Shown piece by piece: positions 9,849-32,238 of a DNA stretch of 64,000 bases. The position numbers and the translations under genes are program-made. The stretch lies in IMG/VR virus record IMGVR_UViG_3300030107_002093, positions 1 to 64,000 of that record. The stretch is one strand, 5' to 3'. The DNA is from a virus. Numbering within the stretch: the stretch's first letter is position 1; each line of letters starts with the position of its first letter. A model generated the notes under the pieces. It did no database searches. It was not told the DNA's origin and saw nothing but the letters and a program-made list of their open reading frames with translations.

Positions 9849-11290
9849 TGGAACTAGATGACATGGACTTCGTTTCTGCAATGGACATGGAGATGTCCAA
9901 GACATCCTTCCCATACTTCTTCCAGAACGTCCTCGGTATGATGTTCCCACCATACATGGAGGAATGGCTTGAGTCGATGCAGACGACTGATAGGACTGTC
10001 ATCATCTGTAGTCGTGACCACGGCAAGTCCGTCTTCATGCATTGTTGGGTTGTATGGAACCTAGTATTCCAAGAGCCACCATATCAGATGCTATACATCT
10101 CATCGAACCAGAAGCAGACTCTTGTTCACATGCGCGAGATTGACAGATACTTCAATCATCCAGCATTGAAGAAGTTCCGCCCCAGTAGGAACTGGGCCAT
10201 TGGTAACATACAACTCACTAATGGCAACGCAATCCTAGAGAGGTCAGTTGGCTCTCAGATTAGAGGACTCCATCCACAGGAGATTATCATTGACGACCCC
10301 TTGAAGGAGTTCAGTCTATCTGCTATCCAAAGAGTGACTGACTGGTTCTTCGGTGACATGATACCCACTCTTCACCACACATCCAACCTGCGAATGATTG
10401 GGACACCATTCACATACACTGACATCTTCGCACAATTGGAAGAGAACCAAGCATACACCGTAACCAAGTATCCCTGTTTCAATGCATTGAACGAACCACT
10501 ATGGCCTGAGAGATGGGATAGTGATGCTCTGTTACAAAGGAAGGCTGAGATTGGTTCCCTCAAGTTTACCCGTGAGTATCTGTGTGTTCCCATATCAACT
10601 GGAACCTCGCTGTTCAATCCAGAATTCATACAGAACTGTAAGAACAAGGAATACGTTCTGAAACTAGGAAATAGGAAGGACAAGGGATACAAGTATTACG
10701 TTGGGGTTGACCCAGCGATATCCACTGATGGTGACTACAATGTGATAACAGTCTTGGAAGTGGATGATGAGGCAAACAAAACCATTGTCCATGTAGACCG
10801 AGCAAAGAACGTTGAGTTCAGGGAAAACATAGAGAAGATTAGACTGATTGGTAAGATATTCCAACCGGAAGTGGTTCTCTATGAAACTAACACTTTCGCC
10901 AAGGCATTTACTCAGGAGTTGAGAAGTATTTCTGACTTGAACATCAAGGACTTTGACACCACTCGTAAGAAGAAGCAAGAGATAATACTCAACCTACAAA
11001 TGAACATAGAGAATGGGAAATTGAATTTCCCCTATGGCGATAATGCCAGCAGAAGGTTGACTAACCTGTTGATTGAGGAACTATCCATGTTCAGCATCAC
11101 GGAGTCTGGTCGCTTTGAGGGAGTAGGCGCACATGACGACTTGGTTATGAGCCTCGCTTTAGCCAATGCCGCGACTCAAGCACCAAGCGAGAACTTTATC
11201 CTCCTAGATGATATGGACTTGTTTGATACGACTCCGGTAAGACCTATGGGCAACGTTATGCCCGGAGGAATAATGGGATTGAATATCTAG
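9848..11290 (+). CDS. terL: terminase large subunit
   Basis: Walker A SRDHGKS, Walker B IIIDD, IGTP coupling motif, nuclease motifs GVDPA and HDDLVMS. Confidence 0.93.
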   Translation: MELDDMDFVSAMDMEMSKTSFPYFFQNVLGMMFPPYMEEWLESMQTTDRTVIICSRDHGKSVFMHCWVVWNLVFQEPPYQMLYISSNQKQTLVHMREIDRYFNHPALKKFRPSRNWAIGNIQLTNGNAILERSVGSQIRGLHPQEIIIDDPLKEFSLSAIQRVTDWFFGDMIPTLHHTSNLRMIGTPFTYTDIFAQLEENQAYTVTKYPCFNALNEPLWPERWDSDALLQRKAEIGSLKFTREYLCVPISTGTSLFNPEFIQNCKNKEYVLKLGNRKDKGYKYYVGVDPAISTDGDYNVITVLEVDDEANKTIVHVDRAKNVEFRENIEKIRLIGKIFQPEVVLYETNTFAKAFTQELRSISDLNIKDFDTTRKKKQEIILNLQMNIENGKLNFPYGDNASRRLTNLLIEELSMFSITESGRFEGVGAHDDLVMSLALANAATQAPSENFILLDDMDLFDTTPVRPMGNVMPGGIMGLNI

Positions 11291-12752: not shown

Positions 12753-14390
12753 ATGGCAGACGAGAAAAGGAGATTCAGCATTGGAAATTTGTTTAGGAGG
12801 ACTACCCCTAAGCCAGCAGATAGGACGGTATACAATCCGGGGATTCAAGAGAAGGACACATCATACCTATTGACTTCACCTGTTATCTATCACATTGCCC
12901 AACAGTCAGTGATTGTCAGGACATGTGTAACCCAGTTGAAGAATGAGGTATTCAGAAGAGGATATCTCTGGGAAGAGAAGTTCGTCAAGAAGTGCATGGA
13001 TTGCGGTAAGGAACACCAATCACCAGTAGACCAATGTGCAGAGTGTGAATCCCCCAATCTAGAGAAGCCCAACCCTGAGCAGTTGAAGTATGCGCAGAAG
13101 TTCCTAGAGGGCTATGTCAACAAGGCAGAGCAACTGTTCATTGACGTATTGAAGGAATTGGAGGATGACTTGAACATCATGGATGATGCCTATTTGGTTT
13201 TAGTTAAGGAATACTTCATGGATAACAACAACCAGATTCGTATGCATAGAATCAAGGAGGTCTATCGTGGCGACCCTGTGACTATGCACATCTACTCTAA
13301 CGACTTAGGGGAAAGGGGCAAGGGAGGGTATGTCTGTGTAAAACACAGAGATAGAATAGAAACGAGTTCGACTGGACTCTGTGAGGAATGCAACTCAGAA
13401 CTTCATCCAGTTCACTATGTCAATAGAGTGAAGGGAGAGGAGCAATACTTCACGAAGGGAGAGGTGTTGCATTTCAGCAAATACTCTCCCGGTAGGATGT
13501 ATGGGCTATCTCCAATAATCACACTATGGAATCATGTGACTACGCTAATCGCAATGGAGAACTACGTTAACTCATCATACACCAAGGCTAGAATGCCGAA
13601 GGGATTGCTCGCAGTCCAGACTAGGAACATTGACTCCATGAAGTCCTTCTGGCGAAGCGTCAAGGAGAAGATGGAGACTGACCCACACTTCATTCCTGTA
13701 ATGGGAATCGAGGCAGAGAACGGTAAGGGTTCGATTGAGTGGGTGAAGTTCATGGATAGCCTCAAGGAGATGGATTACATCTCTGTCAAGGATGACTTGA
13801 GAGATAGGATATCAGGTTTCTATGGAGTGAGCAAGGTCTTCATGGCAGATAACTCTGCAAGTGGTGGCCTGAACAATGAGGGTATGCAGATTCTAGTTAC
13901 GAACAGAGCGGTTGAGATGGCCCAGACAATCTGGAACAACTACGTCTTCCCATTCGTCACGCAGGAATTCGGAATCTTAGATTGGGAACTGAAACTCCCA
14001 CCTTCCGAGGAAGAGGATGAGATAGCCAAACTCCGTAAGAGGGAGATTGAAGTCAACGTTGCATCCGCTATCAAGAACCTTGGATTTGAGGTCAATATGG
14101 ATGACGAAGGACGTTTCACCTATGTGAAGCCACCACAACCAGAAGACCAACAGGGACAAGACGAAGTAGAACTAGACCCATACGCTGGAACCAATATCGA
14201 TGCTGGTCATTTAGGTCAGATGATGGAAGCGGGTAATAAACCCTCAATGGCAGATGCGGGTAAACCAGCAGAGGTAAAATCTAGGAATAAGCCTAGTATG
14301 AGCGTTGGGCCTGATAAGAGATTCAGTGGATTGCCGAAAGACGCAGGTAATGAAAACGTGGATAAGCGAACAGAGAGGCGAGTCGGTTGA
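12753..14390 (+). CDS. portal protein with Zn-ribbon insertions
   Basis: Position after TerL; EVLHFSKYSPGRMYGLSPI, MPKGLL and ISGFYGVSKVF portal-like segments; CMDC/CAEC and CVKH/CEEC inserts. Confidence 0.88.
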   Translation: MADEKRRFSIGNLFRRTTPKPADRTVYNPGIQEKDTSYLLTSPVIYHIAQQSVIVRTCVTQLKNEVFRRGYLWEEKFVKKCMDCGKEHQSPVDQCAECESPNLEKPNPEQLKYAQKFLEGYVNKAEQLFIDVLKELEDDLNIMDDAYLVLVKEYFMDNNNQIRMHRIKEVYRGDPVTMHIYSNDLGERGKGGYVCVKHRDRIETSSTGLCEECNSELHPVHYVNRVKGEEQYFTKGEVLHFSKYSPGRMYGLSPIITLWNHVTTLIAMENYVNSSYTKARMPKGLLAVQTRNIDSMKSFWRSVKEKMETDPHFIPVMGIEAENGKGSIEWVKFMDSLKEMDYISVKDDLRDRISGFYGVSKVFMADNSASGGLNNEGMQILVTNRAVEMAQTIWNNYVFPFVTQEFGILDWELKLPPSEEEDEIAKLRKREIEVNVASAIKNLGFEVNMDDEGRFTYVKPPQPEDQQGQDEVELDPYAGTNIDAGHLGQMMEAGNKPSMADAGKPAEVKSRNKPSMSVGPDKRFSGLPKDAGNENVDKRTERRVG

Positions 14391-17506: not shown

Positions 17507-20149
17507 ATGCCTCACTCTGGTCTAGCGTTTGAGAAGGAAGAAGACGGACTCACGAAAAGAGTTCTAGATTTCTTTGAGCGAACCAGATTCGCCTATCTTT
17601 CTGCTAGGGAAGACCCATCTGAGTATGGCCCTAAGTGGAAGAAGATTGTCAAGAAACTCAGAGAGGACTTCGACCAGATAAGCAACTTCGCTAGGGAGTT
17701 GAAGAAATACGTCCAAGAGAAGGAACTCTTCGATGATGATGTATATGACCCAAAGTCCAGAACTGCTGAGACACTGTTCTCACAAGTGAAGGAGATGCGA
17801 TTCAAGTCAGAGAAGATAAGCGACCCATTCTCAAAACTACTAGGGGATGATGTGATTGATACCTTCATGCAAAAACCAGACGTATTCATATCATTCATTC
17901 ACTATGCGATGCGTTCACATCCCAATACCCTACCTGACAAGATTTGGGAGAAGCACGACTTGAAGCCTGATGAGATTACACAGGGAACAATGGGATTGGA
18001 TTTGAAGGTAGAGGATATCCCATTATACATCATAGAGCATTATGGGGCTGAGGGTAAAGATACTCGTAGGGTGAAATCGAAGTTCAAGGGAGCGTTTGCG
18101 AGATTGAAGGAGATGTATAATGATACATATCCTGAAGACAAGTGGGACTCATTGGTGGATTTGGATGTCGTCAAGGCAGAGAAGAGTGAAGAGGAGAAGC
18201 AAGAGGTAGATTTTCTGGTTCCTAACAAGCCCATGTATCGCATATTTGAAACAGATGATTTGAAGCAACTCAAGGGATTTAGTGGTGATTGGCTAGTTCA
18301 AGAGAAGTATGATGGAATGAGAATACAGATACACAAGGAAAAGGAAGACATCAAAATCTACTCCTATAACAAGAAGGACATAACCGAGAAATGTAAACTG
18401 CAAGTGAAGGAGATGCAGAAGAAGAACTTCGGGGATTGCATACTAGACGCTGAGTTAACATTGTTCCTTGATGATGAGCCACTACATAGAGCAGACACCG
18501 TATCCCATGTATTCAAGAAAGAAACCAAGGGTAGGTTATCTGCTCACGTTTTTGACATCATGAAGCATGAGGGCAAGATGATTGCAGATGAGCCATTGAG
18601 GGAGAGAATCAACATACTCTTCTACCAATACAGTTCCCACTCCACTGAGAACCTAGCCTTCCCATCGAAGAAGGACACTAGGATTGCTGATTCAATCAAG
18701 GAGGTCGAGGACTATTCAAAGGAGATAATGTCCCTACCTGCTTCTGAAGGAGTCGTCATCAAGGACATTGAATCGACATACATACTAGGAAAACAGAAGA
18801 ACCCCAAGTGGATTAAGTGGAAGAAGTTCGTTGACTTGGATGTAGTTGTATTGGATGACAAGAAAACGAAGAAGGGACTACATTCCTATAGCATGGGAAT
18901 AGGGCCAGTCAATGCTGAAACCGCAAGAAACTACAAGACTGTTGAGATGGGAGATAAGGCATACCTTCCTGTGGGGAAGGCTCTGAATACCAAGGAGAAG
19001 GTTAGTGTTGGTGATATCGTCAGAGTCAAGGTCGATGAGGTTAAGAAGACAAAGAATGGTTTCAGCCTGTATTCTGCCAAGGTCATTGAGATACCAGAAG
19101 TGACAGAATCCGATAAGGTGGATACTCTAGAACAACTCTCTACTAAGACGAAGAAGTCTCTTGAGTCTGCAATAGAGTATGTTGCTGGTAAGGCAATGGG
19201 TGATAGGTTCAAGGTTATGAGCGGGGTTCAAACTGCGGCCAAAGTAAAGACTGCTGGTGATATAGCCAGAAATAAAAAGAAGAAGAAGGTGAAGAAGGGC
19301 ATCTACATCACTGATGGTATACACGGAACTGCTGAGATTATCCTGAAGAGTGACTTGGATGGGTTTACCATTTACGGTTTTGAGGGAGATGAGTTGATGC
19401 AGAAGAACGCCCTCTACAACATAGATGAGTGGAAGGAAGAACTCAGCAAGATACTGAAGACCAAGAGGTCTGAACTCAGAATGGGAATCAGGAATGACAT
19501 TATCGAATACGGAGACAAGCCAAAGCCCTTCGACAAGATAGTTGATTTCGTAGCGAGGCATTACAAGGAAGTCTTTGAAGAACTGTTTGAGAGTAACCCA
19601 GAGAGGCTAATGTCATGGATGAAGAAGCAGGGAGATATCCAATATGTTCATCCGAACAAGTTCCAAGCAATGGATGATGTTCTAGAGAAGGACATAGAAG
19701 AAGTGAAAAAAAAAGACTCTCCTAAAAAAGGCGAATTTCAACTCTATCAACGAGAAGACGGAAACATAGACTTCGTTATTTCTGCTGGCGAAGAGAAGAT
19801 GGTTTGGACTATAGACATAGAAGATACGGAAGACGTATTCAATCTATTTGGGAAGTCAGGTAAATTCCCCGCTATAGTTGCTGATACCGTTAATGAGAAC
19901 AAACTATTGGATGCTGGTGAATTAGAACTAGGAGTTCAGAAGGATGGCTATCATGAATATCGTTTGGATGGTGACAAATTCCAGACTAGAATGCATCTTC
20001 GCGTAGTGCCATTGGATGAGCAGAAGGCATGGTTGGCTTGGACAGGAAAGAAGCAAGAGATGCTAGACAAGAAAGAGGATAAGGGAGTATGGAAAATTAC
20101 AGAAGATAAATGGGCTAATTTGCCATTTCCCAAGGAAAAGAGCGAGTAG
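17507..20149 (+). CDS. ATP-dependent DNA ligase (adenylation + OB domains) with large N- and C-terminal extensions
   Basis: Motif I QEKYDGMR, ILDAEL, HVFDIM, SEGVVIK, WIKWKK, then OB-fold segment; about 220-aa N-terminal and about 270-aa C-terminal extra domains. Confidence 0.88.
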   Translation: MPHSGLAFEKEEDGLTKRVLDFFERTRFAYLSAREDPSEYGPKWKKIVKKLREDFDQISNFARELKKYVQEKELFDDDVYDPKSRTAETLFSQVKEMRFKSEKISDPFSKLLGDDVIDTFMQKPDVFISFIHYAMRSHPNTLPDKIWEKHDLKPDEITQGTMGLDLKVEDIPLYIIEHYGAEGKDTRRVKSKFKGAFARLKEMYNDTYPEDKWDSLVDLDVVKAEKSEEEKQEVDFLVPNKPMYRIFETDDLKQLKGFSGDWLVQEKYDGMRIQIHKEKEDIKIYSYNKKDITEKCKLQVKEMQKKNFGDCILDAELTLFLDDEPLHRADTVSHVFKKETKGRLSAHVFDIMKHEGKMIADEPLRERINILFYQYSSHSTENLAFPSKKDTRIADSIKEVEDYSKEIMSLPASEGVVIKDIESTYILGKQKNPKWIKWKKFVDLDVVVLDDKKTKKGLHSYSMGIGPVNAETARNYKTVEMGDKAYLPVGKALNTKEKVSVGDIVRVKVDEVKKTKNGFSLYSAKVIEIPEVTESDKVDTLEQLSTKTKKSLESAIEYVAGKAMGDRFKVMSGVQTAAKVKTAGDIARNKKKKKVKKGIYITDGIHGTAEIILKSDLDGFTIYGFEGDELMQKNALYNIDEWKEELSKILKTKRSELRMGIRNDIIEYGDKPKPFDKIVDFVARHYKEVFEELFESNPERLMSWMKKQGDIQYVHPNKFQAMDDVLEKDIEEVKKKDSPKKGEFQLYQREDGNIDFVISAGEEKMVWTIDIEDTEDVFNLFGKSGKFPAIVADTVNENKLLDAGELELGVQKDGYHEYRLDGDKFQTRMHLRVVPLDEQKAWLAWTGKKQEMLDKKEDKGVWKITEDKWANLPFPKEKSE

Positions 20150-20170: not shown

Positions 20171-21385
20171 GTGATTGGAGTGTTAGCAACAACAGGAGTA
20201 TTATTGAAAGCAGAAAACAATGCTGAGTTTAGCATTCTGAAATCAGATAATCTAGTAATTGGAGGGTATGCATCTATAGAAATTGTAGACAAGCAAAACG
20301 ACTTAATTACACTAGAAGCATTGGAAGAAGCAGTCAAGAAATACATGACGAAAGAAAAATACAGAAATGTAATGTCAAATCATTCAAATGTTCAAGTCGG
20401 GGAGGTCATAGAAAAATACCGAGATTCCAACGGTGTCCTACACAAAACTGCTGTAGACGATGTTGGGTTCTATGTAGTAATCAAGATGCGCGATGACATC
20501 GAGAAGGCTAAGGAAATCTCAAGAGGTATTAGGAAAGGAACATTACGGTCTTTCAGCATAGGTGGACAGGCGATATCAAAGAAACAGAGAAAATCTGAGG
20601 AGTTTGGGGAATACAACGAGATAGAAAAACTTGAGTTGCATGAAGTTACTGTCTGTGAAAAAGGAATAAACCCGGAAGCAAAATTCGACATTTTGAAAAT
20701 GGAGGAAAAGAAAATGAGTGGAAAACTGGAAAAAGCCCTTGAGGAGTTGAATAGCCTGATGAAGCAGGTCAATTCGCTCCAAAAGGAAGAAGAAAGCGAA
20801 GAAATAATGGAGAAAGGTGACGAGTATATGGACACTGAACCCGAAGAGGACATGGGAGAAATGGGCGGCGAAGACGACCTAGAACTTTCAGACGACAGCG
20901 AGGAGAAGGCTCTTGATGAGGACTCAACAAGAGACTACGAGGCTGGCGAGGAAGTTGTTAGCGGCGGAAACCCGACTGCAACCCCAGCACCTCTGAAGGT
21001 TTCTAAGGGATTGGAGAATGGCGATTTCTCTACTCTTGACCTAAGTGTGGAGAATGTCGAGAAGGCATATGAAGCATTCAAGGCCGAGAAGTTAGAGGCA
21101 ATGGCATATGATTCCCTTAACAAGGAGTTCAGTGAGCGTCTAACCGCAGAACTGTCTGTAAAGAAGTCGGCGGCTGAGAGAGCAGAGTATGATGCTCGCA
21201 CAGACGTAGCGGCTCTTAAGGAAGAGTTCGCGGAACTACGCAAGTCCCTTTCGGCAGAAAGCGATGAGATAAAGAAGGCAAGAGAGGTTGCTTTTGAGAT
21301 TCCTGAAGGAATCCCAACCAATACTCTTCAGGCTTCTGAGATTTCATGGAGTGATATTCACAGTATTGTGGAGAGGTATCAGTGA
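20171..21385 (+). CDS. HK97-type prohead protease fused to acidic/coiled-coil scaffold
   Basis: IGGYAS..VDKQNDLI, SNH (His), RSFSIGG (Ser), LHEVTVCEKGINPEA; true start may be GTG 20180 after AGGTGA. Confidence 0.9.
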   Translation: MIGVLATTGVLLKAENNAEFSILKSDNLVIGGYASIEIVDKQNDLITLEALEEAVKKYMTKEKYRNVMSNHSNVQVGEVIEKYRDSNGVLHKTAVDDVGFYVVIKMRDDIEKAKEISRGIRKGTLRSFSIGGQAISKKQRKSEEFGEYNEIEKLELHEVTVCEKGINPEAKFDILKMEEKKMSGKLEKALEELNSLMKQVNSLQKEEESEEIMEKGDEYMDTEPEEDMGEMGGEDDLELSDDSEEKALDEDSTRDYEAGEEVVSGGNPTATPAPLKVSKGLENGDFSTLDLSVENVEKAYEAFKAEKLEAMAYDSLNKEFSERLTAELSVKKSAAERAEYDARTDVAALKEEFAELRKSLSAESDEIKKAREVAFEIPEGIPTNTLQASEISWSDIHSIVERYQ

Positions 21386-21396
21386 GGTGATTAAGT

Positions 21397-22767
21397 ATGA
21401 CAACAGGACATATTAGAACAATGGCAGACCTAGAAGCCGCAACCTACGGCATGGTCGGAGGAACAGGGAACGCCCTGCTAAAGAGCAGTGGAGTAGTTGG
21501 AGGACTCGGAACGCCACACGATGCGTCATCGAATGCCTTCAGTGCGGCAAGTGGTCTAGGTGACCTTTACAACTTGCTATACGGACAGAAAGTCTGGTCG
21601 ATGCTAAATCAGGAAGTCAATGCACTGTCAATGATTTCCAAGAGGCCATACACTTCCAGTGGTTGGAGAGTTCTAAAGAGCCGACCTGCTGGTGGTAGTG
21701 GCTCTGCATTCGGTATTGGAACAACTGACCCCGGTGCAAACACGGCTGACCTATCTGGAATAGCCGCCGACATGATTGGTGGTGTTGCAGAGAACGCTGA
21801 ACTTGGTGGAGATGCTTCTTTCAGAGCATTGTCGCCAGAATACACCAAACTATACGTCAGTCCAAAGACTGTTGCACATCTGTTTGAGTTCTCAGAACTT
21901 GGAATGGAGATGGCCGCAATTGACGATGGAGTAGGAGACATCCGCTCAATCGTTAGAGAGGACATGGGCAAGCACCACGCTGAAGTTCAGAACAAGATGC
22001 TACTAATGCCACTTGAGCATTACGACCACGCATCTTATGCTGACATCGAGAACAACTATACGTCACTATACAAGATTGTGTCGTCTGCTGGTGAACTAGC
22101 CGCAATGGGTGACGCAGACATGACTGCAAACAGCACTACCCCCGCAGACCTACCAACACAACTGGTTAGGATTTTCGGAGATGACAGGACTGTAACCAGA
22201 AGCGGTGGAGACTACACCGGAACGGATAACTTCCTTTCGGCTGAGGTTGACTTCGGTTCAGGATACGCCGCAGGTGACGCAAGAGTTCTAACACTGACTC
22301 TTCTAAACGACATGATTAGGAGAATCAGGCAGAACGGTGGAAACCCCAAGGTTATGCTAACTGGATACGATACTATCCAGCACATCTCAGACCTGCTACA
22401 GAGCCAAGAGAGGTTCATGGACAGGAAGGAGATTGTTCCAACGCACAACGGTGTAAGAGGAGTGAAGGGTGCAGAGGTTGGCTTTAGGGTCGCCACTTAC
22501 TACGACATCCCAATTATCCCAGCAAAGGACATGGCACAGACTGGTAACGCAACGGCTAACAAGTTGAGTGACATCATGCTACTAGACACAGACCATCTGT
22601 GGCTATCGGTCATGAAGCCTACTCAATACTTTGAGAACGGTATTACCAATGGTGACCCATTCGGCGTTGGTTCTCTAGGGAATCAGGGAATGTATCGCAC
22701 AATGGGCGAGACTGGTTGCTCCTTCTTCAAGGGCCAAGGAAAGATTACGAACATAACGAGTGCATAG
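21397..22767 (+). CDS. major capsid protein (HK97 fold)
   Basis: Follows protease, strong GAGGTGA SD, 456 aa, C-terminal FKGQGKITNI; candidate maturation site ALLK-S. Confidence 0.88.
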   Translation: MTTGHIRTMADLEAATYGMVGGTGNALLKSSGVVGGLGTPHDASSNAFSAASGLGDLYNLLYGQKVWSMLNQEVNALSMISKRPYTSSGWRVLKSRPAGGSGSAFGIGTTDPGANTADLSGIAADMIGGVAENAELGGDASFRALSPEYTKLYVSPKTVAHLFEFSELGMEMAAIDDGVGDIRSIVREDMGKHHAEVQNKMLLMPLEHYDHASYADIENNYTSLYKIVSSAGELAAMGDADMTANSTTPADLPTQLVRIFGDDRTVTRSGGDYTGTDNFLSAEVDFGSGYAAGDARVLTLTLLNDMIRRIRQNGGNPKVMLTGYDTIQHISDLLQSQERFMDRKEIVPTHNGVRGVKGAEVGFRVATYYDIPIIPAKDMAQTGNATANKLSDIMLLDTDHLWLSVMKPTQYFENGITNGDPFGVGSLGNQGMYRTMGETGCSFFKGQGKITNITSA

Positions 22768-22781
22768 GTGGGTGATTTCGT

Positions 22782-23144
22782 ATGACTGAAGAAGTTTTTA
22801 CGGTTACCATCCTACCTGACCACAAAGGACACACTGCTCCCCATGTTCACGGTGATGAGTATTTCGTGGATGCAGTAGTGGATGTTTCAACATATGACGC
22901 ATCTGGTGTAGTGTTTAGTGCAAGTGACTTCGGACTATCGAGAGTCAATGCAGTTACACTGACCGGAACCGCGAATGTGTTGTTCTACCCAACCTTCGTA
23001 GTCTCAGAAGCAGGTGCATACACATCTAACAACTCGTTTACCATGTTGTTAGTGCAAGCACTACAGGCTACACCAGCAGAAGTTGCTGACGGTGGAACCC
23101 ACAGTGGCATGCAATTCAGGCTTAGAGTCTACGGACTCGTTTGA
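22782..23144 (+). CDS. putative capsid decoration/minor capsid protein
   Basis: Beta-rich 120 aa directly after MCP, GGGTGA SD, followed by a strong hairpin. Confidence 0.5.
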   Translation: MTEEVFTVTILPDHKGHTAPHVHGDEYFVDAVVDVSTYDASGVVFSASDFGLSRVNAVTLTGTANVLFYPTFVVSEAGAYTSNNSFTMLLVQALQATPAEVADGGTHSGMQFRLRVYGLV

Positions 23145-23156
23145 GTAAAACATAAA

Positions 23157-23198
23157 GTAGTAGCCTCTGTCCTAGAACATCAGGACAGGGGTTACTAC
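23157..23198 (+). terminator. 17-bp RNA stem-loop (terminator or mRNA stabiliser)
   Basis: gtagtagcctctgtcct / agaacatc / aggacaggggttactac; both mismatches are G-U on the + transcript; no U-tract. Confidence 0.7.
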
Positions 23199-23219
23199 CC
23201 CAATATAATTGGTGAAATT

Positions 23220-23693
23220 ATGGCAGTAGTTAGAAGCAAGATTGGCAAGATGACTTGGAAGAACTATAGGTTTGACAGGAACGGAACCAGAGTTTCAACT
23301 AGTGATGCAATCATTCTATACGGCGATAGAAACGTCAAGGTAGAGTTCACTGCTGATGATAAAGCAACCATACAAAGACTAATGGAAACCTCACCTAAGA
23401 AGGTGAAGCACCTAGCCAAGTATCTCAACTTGCGTGGGCCTGATGCAAAGGAAGTTATGGATTCTCTATATCCTCGTTCTAGAAAAGAGAAGATAATCGG
23501 TAGAGCCAAGGTTCCAGAAGTCAAAGAAGAAGTAAAAGAAGAACCAAAGAAAGAAGAGAAAGAGGGAACTCCTCTTCCTCCTGACCTAAACAAACTCACT
23601 GTTAAGGTCTTGAAGGAACATCTAGAAGAGAGGAAACTTTCAACAGAAGGTAAAAAAGCAGACCTCATCAAGAGACTATCAGAGGATGGTTAG
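23220..23693 (+). CDS. protein with C-terminal SAP (HeH) domain
   Basis: DLNKLTVKVLKEHLEERKLSTEGKKADLIKRL matches the SAP consensus. Confidence 0.8.
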   Translation: MAVVRSKIGKMTWKNYRFDRNGTRVSTSDAIILYGDRNVKVEFTADDKATIQRLMETSPKKVKHLAKYLNLRGPDAKEVMDSLYPRSRKEKIIGRAKVPEVKEEVKEEPKKEEKEGTPLPPDLNKLTVKVLKEHLEERKLSTEGKKADLIKRLSEDG

Positions 23694-24002
23694 ATGAGTA
23701 GCGGAACATGCTTCAGTAGTGGTGTCAGAACTGCTGACGCAATTATTACCAAGAGTAGGTGTAAACTAATCTCAATTAGAGCATCTACAGTTACAGATGG
23801 AACATTCACCGTAAAGGTTTACGATAGTGCTGACAACGACCCAAGTGCGGCAGGTGAAGTAGAAGTAGCACGAATGCAAATACACTCCACTGGTGCAACC
23901 AGAGGGAATTCAATGGAATACGACATGCATGGGGTAGTATGCCAAAATGGTATCTTTGTTGATATCACTGGAACAGGTGCTTACTCAATAGAATATGCGT
24001 GA
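23694..24002 (+). CDS. small beta-rich protein, probably virion structural
   Basis: 102 aa; composition and position only. Confidence 0.55.
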   Translation: MSSGTCFSSGVRTADAIITKSRCKLISIRASTVTDGTFTVKVYDSADNDPSAAGEVEVARMQIHSTGATRGNSMEYDMHGVVCQNGIFVDITGTGAYSIEYA

Positions 24003-24007
24003 TTAAT

Positions 24008-24439
24008 ATGCCAAGTATAGATACAGACACAAGACTAGTGATGACAATACTGTTCGTAGGAGCAGTCAGTGGAATAAATATCTACTTTTATTCCCAATAT
24101 GGAATAACGTTCCCTTACGGTGCGGTTGAGCATTCATTGCTCTTCGGGATTAGCACCATTGGTGGGATAATGATAATGAAGGCATTGTTCGATATGGTCG
24201 TTAATGACTGGATTGAGGAATACCTACTACAAAGGAGAATAGACGCTTATTGGGCTAGGAAGGCTAGGGAAGAGGAGAACCGCAAGAGAGTCCGAGAGTC
24301 CTTCAGGCAGTTCCAGCAGAATTGGAATACCACAGTCGCTTCTCCCTCAAACATATACGGGGATAGCAACCTACCTAGTCTGAATCCAACCAAGGGAGGA
24401 GTAAACCCATCTTTCCTAACATTGGAGACTGAGCAGTAG
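24008..24439 (+). CDS. membrane protein, two TM helices plus cytoplasmic coiled coil
   Basis: LVMTILFVGAVSGINIYFY and LLFGISTIGGIMIMKALF hydrophobic stretches. Confidence 0.75.
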   Translation: MPSIDTDTRLVMTILFVGAVSGINIYFYSQYGITFPYGAVEHSLLFGISTIGGIMIMKALFDMVVNDWIEEYLLQRRIDAYWARKAREEENRKRVRESFRQFQQNWNTTVASPSNIYGDSNLPSLNPTKGGVNPSFLTLETEQ

Positions 24440-24451
24440 TGAGGCATATGA

Positions 24452-24676
24452 ATGGTCAGCGAAATCCTATTTGGAATGGATGAATCCACTCTCGCATATG
24501 ACCTTCAACGAGCGCATTCTGCTGACATCTGGTTTCTCAGGGCTAGGTTCTGGTTTTGGGGAATAGTTGGTGGGTTATCCAGTTTCGTATTAGGACAGGC
24601 TATGGCTATCCTCGGCATTAATACTCTCTCCATAGCATGGAATGGTCTAGTGGATTTCTGGAATCATCTGTGGTGA
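24452..24676 (+). CDS. small membrane protein
   Basis: FWFWGIVGGLSSFVLGQAMAILGI; Trp-rich C-terminal helix. Confidence 0.75.
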   Translation: MVSEILFGMDESTLAYDLQRAHSADIWFLRARFWFWGIVGGLSSFVLGQAMAILGINTLSIAWNGLVDFWNHLW

Positions 24677-24680
24677 TTGA

Positions 24681-25352
24681 ATGTCAGTAATGGCGGGTTT
24701 CGCCATACTTATTGTCGAAGGACTAAACAAGATATACCAAAGAGTCCATGCGATTAACTTCGGCATCTATGGTGCTAGTAGAGCAGGGAAGACGACATTG
24801 AATCATCAACTCAGGACAAGAGGGGAGGTTCCTGATATACGACATAGAACCGAGGGGATACAACGTGCCACTAGGAAATACGTCAAACTAGATGGTGACG
24901 CTCATACTGTCAAGACTGCTGATTTGGGAGGACAGACTGTCTATTGGCATGAATGGATAGAGGACATGCGCAATAGAAGACCGAAATACATCATCTTCAT
25001 GATAGATGATAGGCATATGAATAAGCACTATGACATAGAGCAACAACTGTGTTGGACATTCTTGGTGGATACTATCTGTGAACCATACTGGCATAACAGG
25101 AAGAGAAAGAAGAAAAAGAGAGAGATAGACTACCCTATTGCAGTTTCCATTTGGGCCAACAAATACGACTTATGGAAAGACAGGTATGACTATGATGGGC
25201 CAATAGAGAATCACCCCATCTTTGAGGCATTCAGAGCAGGTATGCAGAAGTTGAATGACAAGGGAATACCATGTCACAAATACATAGTCAGTGCTAAATC
25301 TGACTCGGAGATGGTATACAGGGGAGTCCTAACAATGATAAAGGACTACTAG
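24681..25352 (+). CDS. Ras-superfamily (Arf/Sar/Roc-like) small GTPase
   Basis: G1 GASRAGKT, G2 RTEG, G3 DLGGQ, G4 NKYD, G5 SAK; hydrophobic/amphipathic N-terminal helix. Confidence 0.88.
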   Translation: MSVMAGFAILIVEGLNKIYQRVHAINFGIYGASRAGKTTLNHQLRTRGEVPDIRHRTEGIQRATRKYVKLDGDAHTVKTADLGGQTVYWHEWIEDMRNRRPKYIIFMIDDRHMNKHYDIEQQLCWTFLVDTICEPYWHNRKRKKKKREIDYPIAVSIWANKYDLWKDRYDYDGPIENHPIFEAFRAGMQKLNDKGIPCHKYIVSAKSDSEMVYRGVLTMIKDY

Positions 25353-25364
25353 AGGTGAAGACCC

Positions 25365-26039
25365 ATGAGTATGCAGTTTCAGCCACCTAGCCTCATCGGT
25401 GCTAATTCTACAAACGTAACTAATAATGCGTTTATGGATAGACAGTCTGCGGCGAGAGCGGCAGGTGCAGTAACACAATATGAGTATAAGAACACGAAGC
25501 CAAAGAAACAACTTAAGGAAATAATCAAAATCCTAAAACCAGAATCTAAGAGATTCCTAAAGATTCCATACAAGTTCAAGTATAATATCAAGGATAGATG
25601 TGTGGTTTGTGGAACTCACAAGGTTTGGGATGCCAGTGATAACCTAAGACCGCCATTACCTCTACACAAGGTTCGCAAGGGATATCCAATGAGAGGAACA
25701 TACTGTGAGAAACATGCTGGCATTCATAGGCAGTATGAAATGCTAGAGCAACAGATTCTAGCAGATGAACACGGACTATCCTTTAGCGCATATATTCCAA
25801 AGGCTCCTACAATGCAATCCTTGAACCCTCTAGCCTCTGGGCCTCTAACGAGTTTGAAAGCAACAGATATTGCTTCGTTGGGGTCATTGGGATGGACAAT
25901 CAAACCACCTGTCTCTGAAACAGAGAGTAGGGAAGAAGAATTATTCAGACTTGTCATAGAATCCAGCACAATCAACGAAAGGGTGAAAACATTATTGACT
26001 GAGGGGGCTAAGGTAGCACCAGTGGAGGGTGAGCAGTAA
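25365..26039 (+). CDS. Zn-finger protein
   Basis: CVVC...CEKH; GAGGTGA SD. Confidence 0.7.
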   Translation: MSMQFQPPSLIGANSTNVTNNAFMDRQSAARAAGAVTQYEYKNTKPKKQLKEIIKILKPESKRFLKIPYKFKYNIKDRCVVCGTHKVWDASDNLRPPLPLHKVRKGYPMRGTYCEKHAGIHRQYEMLEQQILADEHGLSFSAYIPKAPTMQSLNPLASGPLTSLKATDIASLGSLGWTIKPPVSETESREEELFRLVIESSTINERVKTLLTEGAKVAPVEGEQ

Positions 26040-26749
26040 TGGGACTATTTGGAACAAGTAATTCAAATTTGATGAATACAATGCAAACTAATCAACAAGC
26101 ACAGTTCAAAACTATGAACAATTTGTTGACGCTTCAAGAGAACCACGTTGAGGATTTCTTCCAATATCACGGTGAGGCATTCCTAGCGGCATTGGCTCAA
26201 TTGATTGAGGATACCGTGGAGAAGGTTCTTGGGCAAATGCTACCACAATTGAAATTCCAAACAGACAGTTCTGGTGTCCTTAACATGCATTCTGATTCTA
26301 CAACTGCCTTTGGAAACATCACTGAGGCTAACATCAACTTAGACCTCCAAGCACTCCTTGCCTCGGCAATAAACTCAGAGGTAATAATGCAAAGGAGAAT
26401 GGCAAAGGCACAGTATCTAGAATCACAGGGATTCGCTATGCCAGCAGGGGAACAAATGCCAGCAAACAACATGGGAGGAATGGGACAGATGAATCCGGGT
26501 GGGATTGACCCATCACAGATACAAGGTGGCAACGCTTCTGTCCAAATGAACAATACCATGATGCAACAACAGATGGCGTTCAACAACCAATCTGGATATC
26601 CAGTCCCACCTGCTGGCTATGACAATATGAATAACCCATACTGGATTGACCCTAATACAGGGCAGATGTCCTATACACCACCTGCAAGTGGTCTTGGTCT
26701 TGCTAATGCCGTAAGTAAGGGCATTGCTTGGGCTAAGTGGCTTGCATAG
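26039..26749 (+). CDS. Q/N/M/G-rich low-complexity protein with C-terminal amphipathic helix
   Basis: MGGMGQMNPGG...MMQQQM, YPVPPAGY, ends GLGLANAVSKGIAWAKWLA. Confidence 0.75.
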   Translation: MGLFGTSNSNLMNTMQTNQQAQFKTMNNLLTLQENHVEDFFQYHGEAFLAALAQLIEDTVEKVLGQMLPQLKFQTDSSGVLNMHSDSTTAFGNITEANINLDLQALLASAINSEVIMQRRMAKAQYLESQGFAMPAGEQMPANNMGGMGQMNPGGIDPSQIQGGNASVQMNNTMMQQQMAFNNQSGYPVPPAGYDNMNNPYWIDPNTGQMSYTPPASGLGLANAVSKGIAWAKWLA

Positions 26750-30543: not shown

Positions 30544-32238
30544 ATGGCAAATAGCAATTCACTAAATCAGCAGGTTTGGGTTGGTGCAGGGGCATCGGCT
30601 ACTATGATACCAGAGATGAATATTTACCTTGATGCATGTGACGGAGATGGTGCTAACCCCACAGGAGTGACTGTAGAAAATCTAGGCTCAGGAGCAAATG
30701 CTTTCCTATTAGTTCCTGACCTATATGTTGGATGTATGGCTAGGATAAGAAATAACGATGATACTTCTTTCAGTGGAATAGCAATGATTACCGCTAACAC
30801 TACTAACGCCATTACCTTTGATAGAACCATAGGTAGTAGTGCAGACAACAACGATATTGATGTTACCATACTTGCTTTTGGCGCACCGTCACCTGCTCCG
30901 GCTATCACAAAGAACAGTGCGGCTCGCCCTTCATTACTGGCAGACAATTGGTTAGGTCTTGTGAATACTGTTTCACCCCCATCCGTAGATGTAGAACTAG
31001 GGCAGATATCACTAGCACTTTCCGGTAGAGATTTTGGCTACCAATTCAAGAAAAATGAGACAATAAGTGGTGGTTCAATTGATATGTCCCTGAACAATGG
31101 TTCTTGGTTATACTATGCATTAGGGAAAATTGCTACAGTAACTCATACAAGCACATCTCAAGTTCTACAAGCATCTAGTGATGTGATGACTGGCCTCCAT
31201 GCTAATTCCAAGACTAAATTTATCAGAGCATTTAGTGGAATGACGTTTCCTCCATCAGAGGCAAGCACATTTCATATTGCAAACGGTAATGCAGGTGCAG
31301 ATGGCGCATTATCCGGAACTACGGAATTATATGAAGTAGGGGCAGGTGTCATAACATACGGATTCGGGACTTCAGATGGTGATGCTCTCCCATCATTTGC
31401 TCTAGAAATAACGATGGAAAAAGACGGGTTAACATCCGATGAGTATTATGTTGGTTCTGAAGGAAGTAGTGCTGAGGCATCTTCTGCTTATTCATCCAAT
31501 AGACCATTCAAGGATGTTTATTCAAGAATATTTACAGGATGTCAAGTAAATACTCTTACTCTTAATTTTGAAGAAGGACAAGAAGTGAAGACAAATCTAG
31601 AATTAGTAAGTAGAAGAGCATTTGACTCTCCACAAAACTACGTTCCAAAGAACGGAGTAACGACTCATACATCACTTTTCAATTACAACACTACTCAAAA
31701 CGATGATGCTGACCATAGAACTTCTAGAGATTCAGAACCATTCTTGTTCTCAGAAGGAGTGATTGAGGTATTCGGTCAAACTGTTGCTAGAGTTAAAAGT
31801 GGAAGTCTAACCATTAACAATAACATCACTCCTCAGAGATTCATCGGCACATATGACAGAGGGATAACCACTGCACATATCCCCGGTCAAAGAAACTATG
31901 AGGTTTCATTGACTCTATTAGTTACTGATACTGATATTTGGGATAATCTAAGAAGACAAGGAGAACATGACAGTTTGACTACTACTGACCCACATACTGG
32001 TAGTGCATCTACTGATGAAACTCTTACTCTTAAATTCCAGAAAAATGCAAATGACATTATTCAAATTCAGTTGGACAATTACATCATACAATCTATGGAT
32101 GTTCCCTTCCCTGAAGACAAGGGGCCAATAGAAATGGCAGTGACACTTTCTGCTAGAACTTTAGTTGAAGGAAACAGTGCTACTCCTACGGGAACATATT
32201 ACAAAGGTAAGTGGGTTATCCAAAATATAGATACTTAG
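30544..32238 (+). CDS. major tail tube protein with insertion domains
   Basis: LPSFALE, RIFTGCQVNTLTLN, SGSLTINNN, GQRNYEVSLT tube-like segments; upstream of chaperone and TMP. Confidence 0.8.
   Translation: MANSNSLNQQVWVGAGASATMIPEMNIYLDACDGDGANPTGVTVENLGSGANAFLLVPDLYVGCMARIRNNDDTSFSGIAMITANTTNAITFDRTIGSSADNNDIDVTILAFGAPSPAPAITKNSAARPSLLADNWLGLVNTVSPPSVDVELGQISLALSGRDFGYQFKKNETISGGSIDMSLNNGSWLYYALGKIATVTHTSTSQVLQASSDVMTGLHANSKTKFIRAFSGMTFPPSEASTFHIANGNAGADGALSGTTELYEVGAGVITYGFGTSDGDALPSFALEITMEKDGLTSDEYYVGSEGSSAEASSAYSSNRPFKDVYSRIFTGCQVNTLTLNFEEGQEVKTNLELVSRRAFDSPQNYVPKNGVTTHTSLFNYNTTQNDDADHRTSRDSEPFLFSEGVIEVFGQTVARVKSGSLTINNNITPQRFIGTYDRGITTAHIPGQRNYEVSLTLLVTDTDIWDNLRRQGEHDSLTTTDPHTGSASTDETLTLKFQKNANDIIQIQLDNYIIQSMDVPFPEDKGPIEMAVTLSARTLVEGNSATPTGTYYKGKWVIQNIDT

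Follow-up and report, generated by a model that had tools for sequence, protein, structure and literature searches.

GTPases in which an N-terminal membrane helix is coupled to GTP are regarded as a hallmark of eukaryotic trafficking, and this type of switch has recently been traced to Asgard archaea. Sar1 and SR-beta are N-terminally membrane-anchored GTPases of the same group that carry no lipid modification, and Sar1 features a His at the catalytic position. Outside of the Asgard archaea, ArfR proteins have been found in Korarchaeia only (10.1101/2024.02.28.582541). ArvA (OapA, HVO_3014) is an Arf-like GTPase from Haloferax with an N-terminal amphipathic helix that drives vesicle formation, and the product of arvC is a Zn-ribbon protein that has been proposed as its GAP (PMC10927574). 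Arf GTPases have also been located on a mobile-element-like region of an Asgard (Atabeyarchaeia) genome (PMC11529989). The Atabeyarchaeia Arf and the Rab GTPase of mimivirus (PDB 5XC5) are precedents for GTPases on mobile elements and viruses, however, both are close copies of host-type proteins, one from an integrated Asgard region and the other from a giant eukaryotic virus. The family described here is instead deeply divergent and virus-wide, and it belongs to tailed viruses of non-Asgard archaea, where it has partners of its own.

In the surface ocean, magroviruses rank among the most abundant viruses. They have not been cultured despite their great abundance, and the majority of their genes lack an assigned function (PMC5434244); the magrovirus papers examined make no mention of the GTPase gene. 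How tailed archaeal viruses exit their cells has not been established, and holins have yet to be identified in them; holins are small proteins that span the membrane once or twice, end in a charged C-terminal tail, are expressed late and are encoded near the structural genes (PMC10791045).

The window analyzed here is a stretch of 64,000 nucleotides (positions 1 to 64,000 of IMG/VR record IMGVR_UViG_3300030107_002093) from a complete 102.7-kb magrovirus-like genome. The open reading frame at 24681..25352 on the + strand, which is the central finding, very probably encodes an Arf-like small GTPase of 223 amino acids that begins MSVMAGFAILIVEGLNKIY. Motifs were checked on alignments of 20, 91 and 39 sequences. 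All five GTPase motifs (G1-G5), as claimed by the original prediction, are present and conserved in the 91-sequence alignment, and G1, NKxD and SAK are each kept in 98-100% of the sequences counted. The G1/P-loop, GASRAGKT (residues 31-38, 24771..24794, +), fits GxxxxGK[ST]; G31, G36 and K37 are invariant in the 91-sequence alignment, and GKTT occurs in 174 of the 176 unique sequences of lineage 1. The G2 candidate is Thr57 (24849..24851, +), located in the R-T-x-G sequence of switch I. This residue is invariant in the 91- and 39-sequence alignments, and its alignment to the PT.G of Arf suggests that it is the Mg-binding Thr. G3/switch II is DLGGQ (residues 81-85), which is followed by W89 and W92 (24921..24956, +). 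The combination of DLGGQ and Trp, which had been read as an Arf-type signature, holds in part. DxGG is kept, with D81 and G84 invariant in the 91-sequence alignment and in a later set, and W92, located 7 residues past Q85 as in Arf, is kept in at least 90% of the sequences. However, Q85 is not conserved: residue 85 is Glu in 100 and Gln in 76 of the 176 unique lineage 1 sequences, and it is Q, E, D or H in the other lineages. The guanine-specificity motif G4, NKYD (residues 160-163, 25158..25169, +), conforms to NKxD in every unique sequence of lineage 1 (176/176) and lineage 2 (70/70). G5 is S204-A-K206 (25290..25298, +); SAK is found in 173 of 176 lineage 1 sequences and lineage 2 features AT[KR] at this site. 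The interswitch region is ~5 residues longer than in Arf. This set of motifs suggests that the protein functions as a guanine-nucleotide-binding switch.

Single-sequence comparisons with known families gave low scores throughout. The window GTPase falls under the gathering score of every Pfam GTPase family; its score for Arf (PF00025) is 16.8 bits, under the cut-off of 22.3 bits, and Roc (18.1 bits vs a 27-bit cut-off), SRPRB (17 bits vs a 25-bit cut-off) and MMR_HSR1 are as weak as Arf. NCBIfam gave only the generic small_GTP domain, below cut-off, the single sequence had no match in PHROGs and reached only an E of about 0.8 in the PDB, and tblastn against 50,697 phage records gave no match. 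Representatives of lineages 2 and 4 had no Pfam match at E ≤ 0.001, and MMR_HSR1 weakly matches 16 of 28 family members. Seven distant non-magrovirus relatives exceed the Pfam Arf cut-off at 25.5-39.5 bits with Arf as their top family, and PT.G is present in distant relatives where switch I of the window GTPase reads RT.G. The Pfam Arf model has matches in 13 of 14 control genomes, so genome-wide scans with that model are uninformative.

Profile comparisons gave Asgard archaeal ArfR1 (GerdArfR1, 8OUN/8OUM; HodArfR1, 8OUK) and eukaryotic Arf/Arl proteins (Arf6, Arf1, Arl1, Arl3 and Arl8) as the best matches. A profile that includes bridging sequences, compared with PDB sequences, matched GerdArfR1 with an E of 1.4e-13, followed by Arl3, Arf1, Arl1 and Arl8. 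Sar1 was weaker than Arf/Arl in this comparison (E 2.9e-8), and Der and EngA were also among the matches. With the virus-only profile, GerdArfR1 was the top genuine match (E 5e-7) and Arl8A was second (9e-5), ahead of Rab33B (3e-4) and KRas (3e-3), which corresponds to a lead of Arf over Rab/Ras of ~10 bits.

The AlphaFold2 model made from the 91-sequence alignment (pLDDT 89.3, pTM 0.85) features a small G-domain fold with a six-stranded sheet and five helices and resembles the GTP forms of the Arf family, and it may lean on Arf structures in its training. An earlier model from 20 close sequences was dropped; it had a pLDDT of 68 and a Foldseek list that was mostly G-alpha with an rmsd of ~8 Å. 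On re-alignment, each of the best 1000 Foldseek chains reached a Z of at least 8, and small GTPases reached 17-18.8. A second look at the structures showed that the first 28 entries are all GTP-bound Arf or Arl, among which Arf6 superposes on the model with a Z of 18.8 at 2.3 Å over 161 of 163 residues, and Arl1 and Arf1 also lead. The structures after the top 28 include a Lokiarchaeal Rag-like GTPase, SR-beta, Arl2, Arl8b, GerdArfR1, G-alpha-i and Sar1, and an all-PDB search without Foldseek gave the same leaders. ArfR1, Arf and Arl are the best structural matches (Z 17-18.8, 2.3-2.6 Å), and Sar1 and SR-beta reach a Z of 17.1-17.6 (17.6 for SR-beta); small GTPases as a whole differ by about 2-4 units of Z. 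The Roc-like identity that had also been entertained was dropped, based on the stand-alone length of 223 residues, the lack of a COR domain and a Roc score below the cut-off, and LRRK1 and LRRK2 align to the model only at Z 13.7-13.9.

In light of these comparisons, it is highly likely that the open reading frame encodes a real small GTPase of the Arf-like group, which comprises Arf, Arl, Sar1, SR-beta and G-alpha. The prediction of a virus-encoded GTPase near Arf is borne out by the profile matches, the Pfam Arf scores of the distant relatives and the structural ranking, which support Arf-type proteins as the nearest known relatives. The viral family is best explained as a very divergent, virus-specific branch of this group. 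Its placement in the Arf subfamily is suggestive rather than proven because the margin over Rab/Ras is ~10 bits and the spread of Z values is narrow.

The viral GTPase and ArfR1, Arf and Arl have in common a helix before strand 1, which is predicted in the viral protein, DxGG(Q), a Trp 7 residues on, the T.G of switch I, and NKxD. Like ArfR1 and Arl8, the viral protein has no myristoylation signal. It differs from Arf and Arl in that residue 85 is often Glu, G2 is RT.G and not PT.G, and G5 is SAK and not CAT. A K/R-rich hairpin is further inserted ahead of strand 5, an invariant HPIF motif lies in an additional segment after G4, and the protein is encoded by a tailed virus within its own five-gene block. 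Sar1 resembles lineage 3 of the viral family, where switch II reads DIGGH, however, Sar1 and SR-beta have lower profile scores than Arf/Arl and the viral locus has no SR-alpha or Sec23/24 context. The likeness to ArvA, judged from the description of ArvA, consists of a small Arf-like GTPase from non-Asgard archaea with an adjoining gene for a zinc-binding or, in the virus, putative zinc-binding protein, and ArvA acts at the cell membrane. The ArvA neighbors arvB (DUF2073) and arvC (DUF2072) are unmatched by the viral neighbors in Pfam, and the Cys/His protein encoded directly downstream is an analogy only. The viral block also encodes two membrane proteins and a Q/N-rich protein that the ArvA locus lacks.

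The GTPase has 351 homologous protein clusters. Its loci are distributed over four virus lineages that are ~30% identical to each other, with 570 + 127 + 4 loci in IMG/VR, of which the 570 belong to the lineage of the window, plus 11 metagenome loci. Among 185,579 species genomes, close relatives were found on two contigs only; these belong to a single alphaproteobacterial MAG, bear virus head genes and are misbinned virus contigs. The open reading frame is a real gene and is neither a chance reading frame nor a recent host acquisition, based on its occurrence in >350 clusters and ~700 loci, a dN/dS of ~0.06 that indicates strong purifying selection, and its near-absence from species genomes. 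The outcome that would have spoken against the original prediction, a recently acquired host gene confined to this genome, is contradicted by the presence of the gene in at least four virus lineages. The family is viral and ancient, and the GTPase is best explained as a core gene of magrovirus-like tailed archaeal viruses.

The family profile matched 84 proteins at E ≤ 1e-3 among 1.84 billion representatives, with no large archaeal cellular family among them. Bridging sequences used in two further protein searches retrieved 6 and 10 proteins, with no named outgroup among them. Relatives of the P0187, P0130 and P0155 types were not found in IMG/VR, and no confirmed hit came from scanning metagenomes for the 'Euryarchaeota archaeon' type. 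The closest non-viral look-alike clusters are mostly bacterial. This result, together with the occurrence of ArvA in Euryarchaeota (PMC10927574), is at odds with the assumption that such GTPases are restricted to eukaryotes and Asgard archaea.

Two regions of the GTPase may contact the membrane, and both had been singled out before this analysis. A hydrophobic, weakly amphipathic helix is predicted at residues 3-22 (24687..24746, +) and is conserved; it is modeled with low confidence (pLDDT ~60). The best 18-residue window of this helix has a mean hydrophobicity of 0.61 and a hydrophobic moment of 0.42; over its first 12 residues, the helix is distinctly hydrophobic, more so than amphipathic. 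The segment is hydrophobic yet too short for a full transmembrane helix. The profile comparison aligned this segment with the region of the N-terminal helix in GerdArfR1 (8oun). The second region is the K/R-rich insert NRKRKKKKRE (residues 139-148, 25095..25124, +), which is part of the loop that joins helix 3 to strand 5 and includes the polybasic stretch RKRKKKKR (residues 140-147). The insert is modeled as a small hairpin with strands at residues 136-138 and 143-145. It is K/R-rich across the family, with a median of 6-8 K/R per 20 residues, and this richness is conserved in lineages 1 and 2. The modeled helix and hairpin suggest that the GTPase may bind membranes.

The GTPase gene is the third in a block of five genes whose order, membrane protein, small membrane protein, GTPase, Cys/His protein and Q/N-rich protein, is common to the four lineages; the genes are 4-12 nt apart or overlap. 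Gene 1 (23999..24439, +) encodes a 146-residue membrane protein with two transmembrane helices predicted by hydropathy at residues ~13-31 and 46-64, after which the C-terminal half is charged and helical. A protein of similar topology is found at this position in lineages 2-4; hhalign comparison of these proteins between lineages fell short of significance (E 0.035). Gene 2 (24452..24676, +) encodes a small membrane protein of 74 residues with one predicted transmembrane helix at ~38-56; its stop codon is 4 nt ahead of the GTPase start, and a reading frame of 70-81 residues occupies this position in lineages 2-4. Gene 4 (25365..26039, +) encodes a 224-residue Cys/His protein that features CxxC and TYCxxH motifs and, judging from these, probably binds zinc. 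C79, G83, W88, T112, Y113, C114 and H117 are invariant across two lineages, and homology between lineages 1 and 2 is detected by hhalign (probability 94.6%, E 7e-8). The protein had no match in Pfam, the PDB, PHROGs or Atlas and could be assigned to no known family. Gene 5 (26039..26749, +), whose start overlaps the gene 4 stop, encodes a 236-residue protein that is 21% Q+N with a conserved N-terminus, MG[LVI]FG[TN]SN. This protein, too, is homologous between lineages 1 and 2 by hhalign (probability 77%, E 2e-5), and a Q/N-rich protein is located at the same position in lineages 2-4. None of the neighbors of the GTPase in the block matched Pfam, PHROGs or the PDB, and none matched a known GAP, GEF, holin, ArvB or ArvC. 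PADLOC assigned no defense family to the GTPase, its neighbors or its relatives.

The previously noted location in the structural operon of a tailed virus is confirmed by the surrounding genes. TerL, portal, prohead protease and major capsid protein genes are upstream of the block and a tail tube protein gene is downstream, all on the + strand. The capsid genes span 21397-24002 and the tail tube gene is at 30544, and the region is tightly packed. In lineage 2 the block follows a gene for a 2,310-residue protein ~8 kb upstream of TerL, and some lineage 2 contigs have a capsid-sized reading frame of ~464 residues ahead of the block. In lineage 3 the block adjoins a thermosome gene. The block is therefore not bound to a given structural neighbor, and the best explanation is that the five genes move as one unit with the GTPase at the center.

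The explanation preferred here, with a probability of roughly 0.45, is a late membrane module, perhaps for egress, in which the GTPase acts as a membrane switch under GTP control. When bound to GTP, the protein would be anchored through its N-terminal hydrophobic helix and the K/R-rich hairpin close by to the inner face of the host cytoplasmic membrane, where it would sit beside the two viral membrane proteins and recruit or gate partners. GTP hydrolysis or exchange, possibly aided by the zinc protein, would set the timing, and the block would be transcribed together with the late structural genes. The end point judged most likely for such a switch would be that the host membrane is remodeled or ruptured at a late stage to release the virus. 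The predicted transmembrane helices of genes 1 and 2, the hydrophobic helix and the conserved basic insert were counted for the link to the membrane; the replacement of the catalytic Gln by Glu in over half of the close relatives, unlike in Arf or Sar1, was counted against the explanation as a whole. Joint action of the GTPase and its neighbors at the membrane is rather probable. Egress or lysis as the end point is a tentative proposal that is on the doubtful side, and the partnership with the neighboring proteins and the role in egress are both putative. The block may be an undescribed membrane-acting, perhaps cell-exit, machine. Its most specific form, a magrovirus Arf-like machine in which two membrane proteins, the GTPase, a regulating zinc protein and a Q/N-rich effector open or reshape the host membrane for release, is speculative and fairly unlikely. 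Compared to phage holin cassettes, the viral block has no endolysin and no holin sequence match, and the likeness is one of topology and position only. To our knowledge, no lysis cassette includes a GTPase, and we are aware of no precedent for a GTPase in a lysis system.

An Arf-like family in tailed viruses of marine Euryarchaeota broadens the known range of Arf-type switches and offers bridging sequences for GTPase phylogeny. The conserved block, which combines membrane proteins with a switch, is a concrete candidate for the exit of tailed archaeal viruses. Should the most specific form of the preferred explanation hold, it would give tailed archaeal viruses their first identified egress system, and a membrane switch of the Arf type would be seen for the first time at work in a virus that infects prokaryotes, beyond Asgard archaea and eukaryotes.

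A different outcome at the membrane is a take-over of the host membrane in the manner of ArvA or Arf/Sar1, where the GTPase would bend the membrane and recruit partners to produce vesicles or a membrane-bound compartment. Possible purposes include receptor shedding, superinfection exclusion, or organizing replication or assembly at the membrane. The N-terminal hydrophobic helix and the putative zinc-binding protein next door are ArvA-like, the low-complexity Q/N-rich partner and the putatively membrane-facing basic insert would suit such a role, and viral exploitation of ArvA has already been speculated on in a review (PMC10791045). However, the neighbors have no detectable homology to DUF2073 or DUF2072, and the viral GTPase is no close copy of ArvA, since no large archaeal cellular family emerged from the 1.84 billion representatives searched. 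Tailed viruses also lack an envelope, so that it is hard to see what they would gain from vesicles, and the block is co-oriented with late structural genes. This outcome is considered unlikely.

The position of the gene between the capsid genes and the tail tube gene, on the same strand and tightly packed, invites a reading without any membrane role, in which the GTPase serves as an assembly chaperone or as a checkpoint when heads are completed, heads and tails are joined or tails are assembled, and the neighboring small proteins are minor structural or assembly proteins. The capsid-sized reading frame ahead of the block in some lineage 2 contigs fits with a morphogenesis factor, however, the block is placed elsewhere in lineages 2 and 3, two of the five genes encode predicted membrane proteins and no PHROG structural family was matched. 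We know of no tailed-virus assembly pathway that uses a Ras-like GTPase, and a virion morphogenesis factor of this kind is quite improbable. Least probable of all is a degenerate, non-switching P-loop protein, either a pseudo-GTPase scaffold or a generic TRAFAC protein of the Era/Der (MMR_HSR1) type with a superficial likeness to Arf, which would account for the similar MMR_HSR1 and Arf scores of the single sequence, the weak MMR_HSR1 matches in the family, the presence of Der and EngA among the profile matches and the variable catalytic residue, but under which the retention of G1, NKxD and SAK under strong purifying selection would be unexpected for a dead nucleotide site, and against which DxGG with Trp at +7, the size and the structural ranking favor an Arf-like over an Era-like protein, while Q, E, D and H are all polar and could position a water.

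Lineage 4 has an extra gene ahead of the GTPase gene that encodes a 256-residue acidic protein with a poly-Asp tail. This protein was considered as a GTPase paralogue and rejected (hhalign probability 0.1%). A few members of the GTPase family carry the automatic JGI label 'GTPase SAR1 family protein'.

The open reading frame at 24681-25352 (+) is intact and encodes a protein of 223 amino acids with the sequence that had been predicted. The gene starts 4 nt past the stop of a 74-aa ORF, the next gene follows 12 nt on, and a Shine-Dalgarno-like word, GGTGA, lies immediately upstream. The GTPase is matched by 351 protein clusters (E ≤ 0.01), and the best 120 of the 351, which come from Tara, JGI, ENA, and NCBI data, are 60–92% identical and lie on contigs of up to 104 kb. 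The median dN/dS over 23 gap-free pairings that each include the window gene is 0.063, a rough estimate because synonymous positions are almost saturated. In an alignment of 91 sequences reaching down to ~20% identity, the invariant residues are G31, G36, and K37 in the P-loop, T57, D81 and G84 of the DxxG motif, D109, and N160 and K161 of the NKxD motif; W89, W92, and D163 are nearly invariant. The G-motifs named in the original prediction are borne out in the 176 unique sequences of lineage 1, the window's own group, where GKTT is found in 174, NKxD in all 176, and SAK in 173. The predicted DLGGQ sequence followed by Trp stands in part: DxGG and W89/W92 are kept, but the Gln at residue 85 (codon 24933-24935) is variable. 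Of the 176 unique lineage-1 sequences, 100 have Glu and 76 have Gln here, and the corresponding residue in lineage 2 is Q in 45, E in 14, D in 6, and H in 1. Lineage 3 features a His (DIGGH) at the position of the Arf "catalytic Gln", a position that is also occupied by His in Sar1. The free switching at residue 85 suggests that a partner may be needed for hydrolysis, or that a polar side chain of any kind may be enough.

Scanned alone, the window GTPase falls below every Pfam cut-off, with Roc, SRPRB, MMR_HSR1, and Arf tied at E ~4e-3. The family is isolated: among 1.84 billion representative proteins, just 84 matched its profile at E ≤ 1e-3, and these include full-length relatives of 17–31% identity. 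Seven of the 10 distant relatives scanned (P0155, P0178, P0187, P0190, P0193, P0194, and P0203) score above the Pfam gathering threshold for Arf, which is the top family in each, and several distant relatives have the Arf-type PT.G in switch I. When a profile that included bridging sequences, i.e., distant relatives from outside the magroviruses, was compared with all PDB sequences, the top match was GerdArfR1 (8OUN, E 1.4e-13), an Arf-related GTPase of Asgard archaea whose structure was determined by Vargova et al. (bioRxiv 10.1101/2024.02.28.582541). It was followed by Arl3, Arf1, Arl1, GerdArfR1-GTP, Arl8, and Arf6, with Sar1 and G-alpha near 1e-8. Because the Arf signal could stem from the bridging sequences, the search was rerun with a virus-only profile of 39 sequences from the four virus lineages that carry the GTPase. 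GerdArfR1 was again the best genuine PDB match (E 5e-7, 32.6 bits), followed by Arl8A and Arl8B (~1e-4), Rab33B (3e-4), and KRas (3e-3). One further match to this profile, a tandem-repeat RecA construct, was rejected, as the P-loop alone was aligned. The order with Arf first is consistent between the two profiles, by a modest margin.

An AlphaFold2 model built from 20 close sequences was poor (pLDDT 68); the 91-sequence alignment gave a model with a pLDDT of 89.3 and a pTM of 0.85. Foldseek searches with the model found Rab, Ras, Arl, and Arf at like E-values of ~1e-9, and the top TM-scores were those of Arf6 (0.82) and Arl1 (0.78). The alignment against all representatives was led by Arf6 (Z 18.3 and 18.2, 2.4 Å over 160 residues, 21% identity), followed by SR-beta (17.6), a Lokiarchaeal Rag-like GTPase (17.6), a mimivirus Rab (17.1), Sar1 (17.1), and G-alpha (16.7). 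When the top 1000 Foldseek chains were re-aligned, the first 28 were all GTP-bound Arf6, Arl1, Arf3, Arl3, Arf1, or Arl6 (Z 18.8–17.7), and after these came the Rag-like protein, SR-beta, Arl2, Arl8b, GerdArfR1-GTP (17.4), G-alpha-i, Sar1, and HodArfR1-GTP (17.0), with a single Rab in the top 50. This ranking agrees with the sequence evidence, even though the gaps in Z are small and the model is not independent of AlphaFold2 training. The Arf-like character originally proposed is thus supported by the profiles, the Pfam scores of distant relatives, and the structural ranking, all of which group the viral GTPase with Arf, Sar, SR-beta, and G-alpha. Membership of this group is put at a probability of about 0.85–0.9, and the placement nearest to Arf, Arl, and ArfR within it is suggestive. 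The viral protein differs from Arf in having a longer interswitch (24 vs. 19 residues from the G2 Thr to the G3 Asp), RT.G in place of PT.G in switch I, either Q or E at residue 85, an inserted K/R-rich hairpin ahead of strand 5, and an extra segment after G4 with an invariant His (HPIF).

The model features a helix at residues 3–22, with a pLDDT of ~60. Along the first dozen residues, MSVMAGFAILIV, the sequence is just hydrophobic, and further on the helix is amphipathic; the top 18-residue window has a mean hydrophobicity of 0.61 and a moment of 0.42 (family medians 0.63 and 0.38). A hydropathy scan predicted no full transmembrane segment in the GTPase. The profile alignment places this region over the N-terminal helix of GerdArfR1. 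A Sar1/Arf-type helix is retained as a prediction, although its first dozen residues are plainly hydrophobic and not amphipathic. The polybasic insert is conserved in composition and not in sequence, with medians of 6 (lineage 1) and 8 (lineage 2) K/R per 20 residues. Membrane binding by the viral GTPase is at most a reasonable inference from these features.

The record containing the window is 102,725 bp long and is rated complete in IMG/VR; the window is its first 64 kb. The genes around the GTPase are all on the plus strand. They include the large terminase (9848-11290), the portal (12753-14390), the prohead protease (20171-21385), and the HK97-type major capsid protein (21397-22767). An ATP-dependent DNA ligase domain occurs in a protein of 880 aa (17507-20149) encoded after the portal region and before the protease. 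Compared with deposited phage records, the capsid protein is best matched by HVTV-1 and HCTV-1, two tailed viruses of haloarchaea. A basic protein of 157 aa whose C-terminal part is a SAP DNA-binding domain (E 1.5e-10) is encoded at 23220-23693, after the capsid genes and before the GTPase module, and the tail tube protein (30544-32238) is encoded downstream of the GTPase. Just past the end of the window, two ORFs of 557 and 296 aa (65350-67361 (-) of the whole record) together make up a split family-B DNA polymerase. Philosof et al. 2017 (PMC5434244) reported a ligase in the structural module of magroviruses of groups A and B, and a split family-B polymerase in group B1; the present virus was treated as magrovirus-like because it has both. 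From this likeness, the host would be a marine group II archaeon.

Lineage 1 comprises 570 IMG/VR loci and lineage 2 (P0133 type, ~31% identical) 127 IMG/VR contigs of up to 118 kb. Lineage 3 (P0131 type) is found on four IMG/VR contigs, one of them 110 kb long with the gene beside a thermosome gene, and lineage 4 (P0130 type) on 11 contigs from marine metagenomes, up to 81 kb long. When 185,579 prokaryotic species, each represented by one genome, were scanned with a sequence pattern, just two relatives turned up, both in the MAG of Maricaulis sp. isolate IN14. The two contigs, L082 (NZMJ01000101.1) and L083 (NZMJ01000024.1), encode GTPases 69% and 60% identical to that of the window, respectively. 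Since both carry the full lineage-1 module and head genes, they look like two different magrovirus contigs put into an alphaproteobacterial bin by mistake. A recent host-derived gene confined to this genome, the case that would have counted against the original prediction, does not fit four virus lineages and just two species-genome matches on virus contigs; in these viruses the gene has a long history and a wide distribution. Outside viruses, the closest look-alikes in the ESM Atlas are for the most part G-domain clusters of bacteria, some of which bear an Arf label, plus a single cluster from Asgard archaea, and one bridging sequence is from a "Euryarchaeota archaeon" MAG. These count only as leads.

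The neighbours of the GTPase and their order are shared by all four lineages. The block consists of a membrane protein of 135–270 aa that combines one to three hydrophobic stretches with a charged, helical tail, a 70–81-aa ORF with a transmembrane helix predicted in the window copy and some others, the GTPase, a 220–350-aa protein with an invariant Cys...G...W...G.TYC..H pattern, and a Q/N-rich protein of 190–270 aa (26039-26749 in the window). Profile-profile comparison of lineages 1 and 2 gave probabilities of 99.9% for the GTPase (E 3.5e-35), 94.6% for the Cys/His protein (E 7e-8), and 77% for the Q/N-rich protein (E 2e-5), and no significant similarity for the first membrane protein. The block follows the capsid genes in lineage 1 and a 2,310-aa protein ~8 kb upstream of the terminase in lineage 2; on the 110-kb lineage-3 contig (L167), a thermosome-type chaperonin gene (4820-6481) lies ~350 nt upstream with one small ORF between. 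This constant order amid changing surroundings is good evidence for joint action of the five genes; the comparison across lineages supports the existence of the unit and not a given function. In lineage 4, a further gene, encoding 250–260 aa, is inserted between the small membrane ORF and the GTPase (L168:7229-7996, and at the same place in contigs L170, L173, and L177). Its product is acidic, with ~25 consecutive Asp at its end and a P-loop-like SETKPGKS close to the N-terminus; kinship with the GTPase was ruled out (hhalign probability 0.1%). The Q/N-rich protein has a conserved N-terminus, MG[LVI]FG[TN]SN, in the window and in L082, L083, L115, and L167, which would fit MGxxxS/T, the N-myristoylation signal of eukaryotes. 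Long Q/M runs follow this motif in some lineages.

The magrovirus studies consulted mention no GTPase. A few members are labelled "GTPase SAR1 family protein" by the JGI pipeline, so the G domain had already been seen by automatic annotation. The tailed-virus structural operon around the GTPase, as originally noted, is confirmed by the head and tail genes. Small GTPases have precedents on a mobile element of an Asgard genome (PMC11529989) and in giant viruses (PDB 5XC5). What appears to be new is a divergent Arf-like family as a core gene of abundant non-Asgard tailed archaeal viruses, and the conserved five-gene membrane module around it.

The function was argued by analogy because the four partners of the GTPase match no family in Pfam, PHROG, PADLOC, or PDB. 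How tailed archaeal viruses lyse their hosts is not known, and none of them has an identified holin (PMC10791045). The block is proposed to act on the host membrane with timing by GTP, a reading favoured by the holin-like small membrane proteins, the Arf-like switch, and the Cys/His protein, a probable zinc binder, all co-oriented with late genes. Virus release would be the likeliest purpose of such action, and this is put forward tentatively. The main rival, vesiculation or another take-over of the membrane, is a less probable reading of the same genes. Its parallel is ArvA of Haloferax volcanii, an Arf-like GTPase with an N-terminal amphipathic helix that the cells need to form extracellular vesicles; a Zn-ribbon protein encoded alongside it is its proposed GAP (PMC10927574). 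A role in virion assembly is unlikely and weaker still, as the changing surroundings tie the block to no particular structural step.

Further along the window, two giant ORFs of 2,379 and 3,019 aa are followed by two adjoining concanavalin-A-like lectin (Laminin_G_3) proteins (54340-55110 and 55323-56054), which are likely parts of a tail fibre or adhesin. An ERCC4 (XPF-type) nuclease with HhH motifs is encoded on the opposite strand at 62761-63447 (-), at the start of the replication-gene block.
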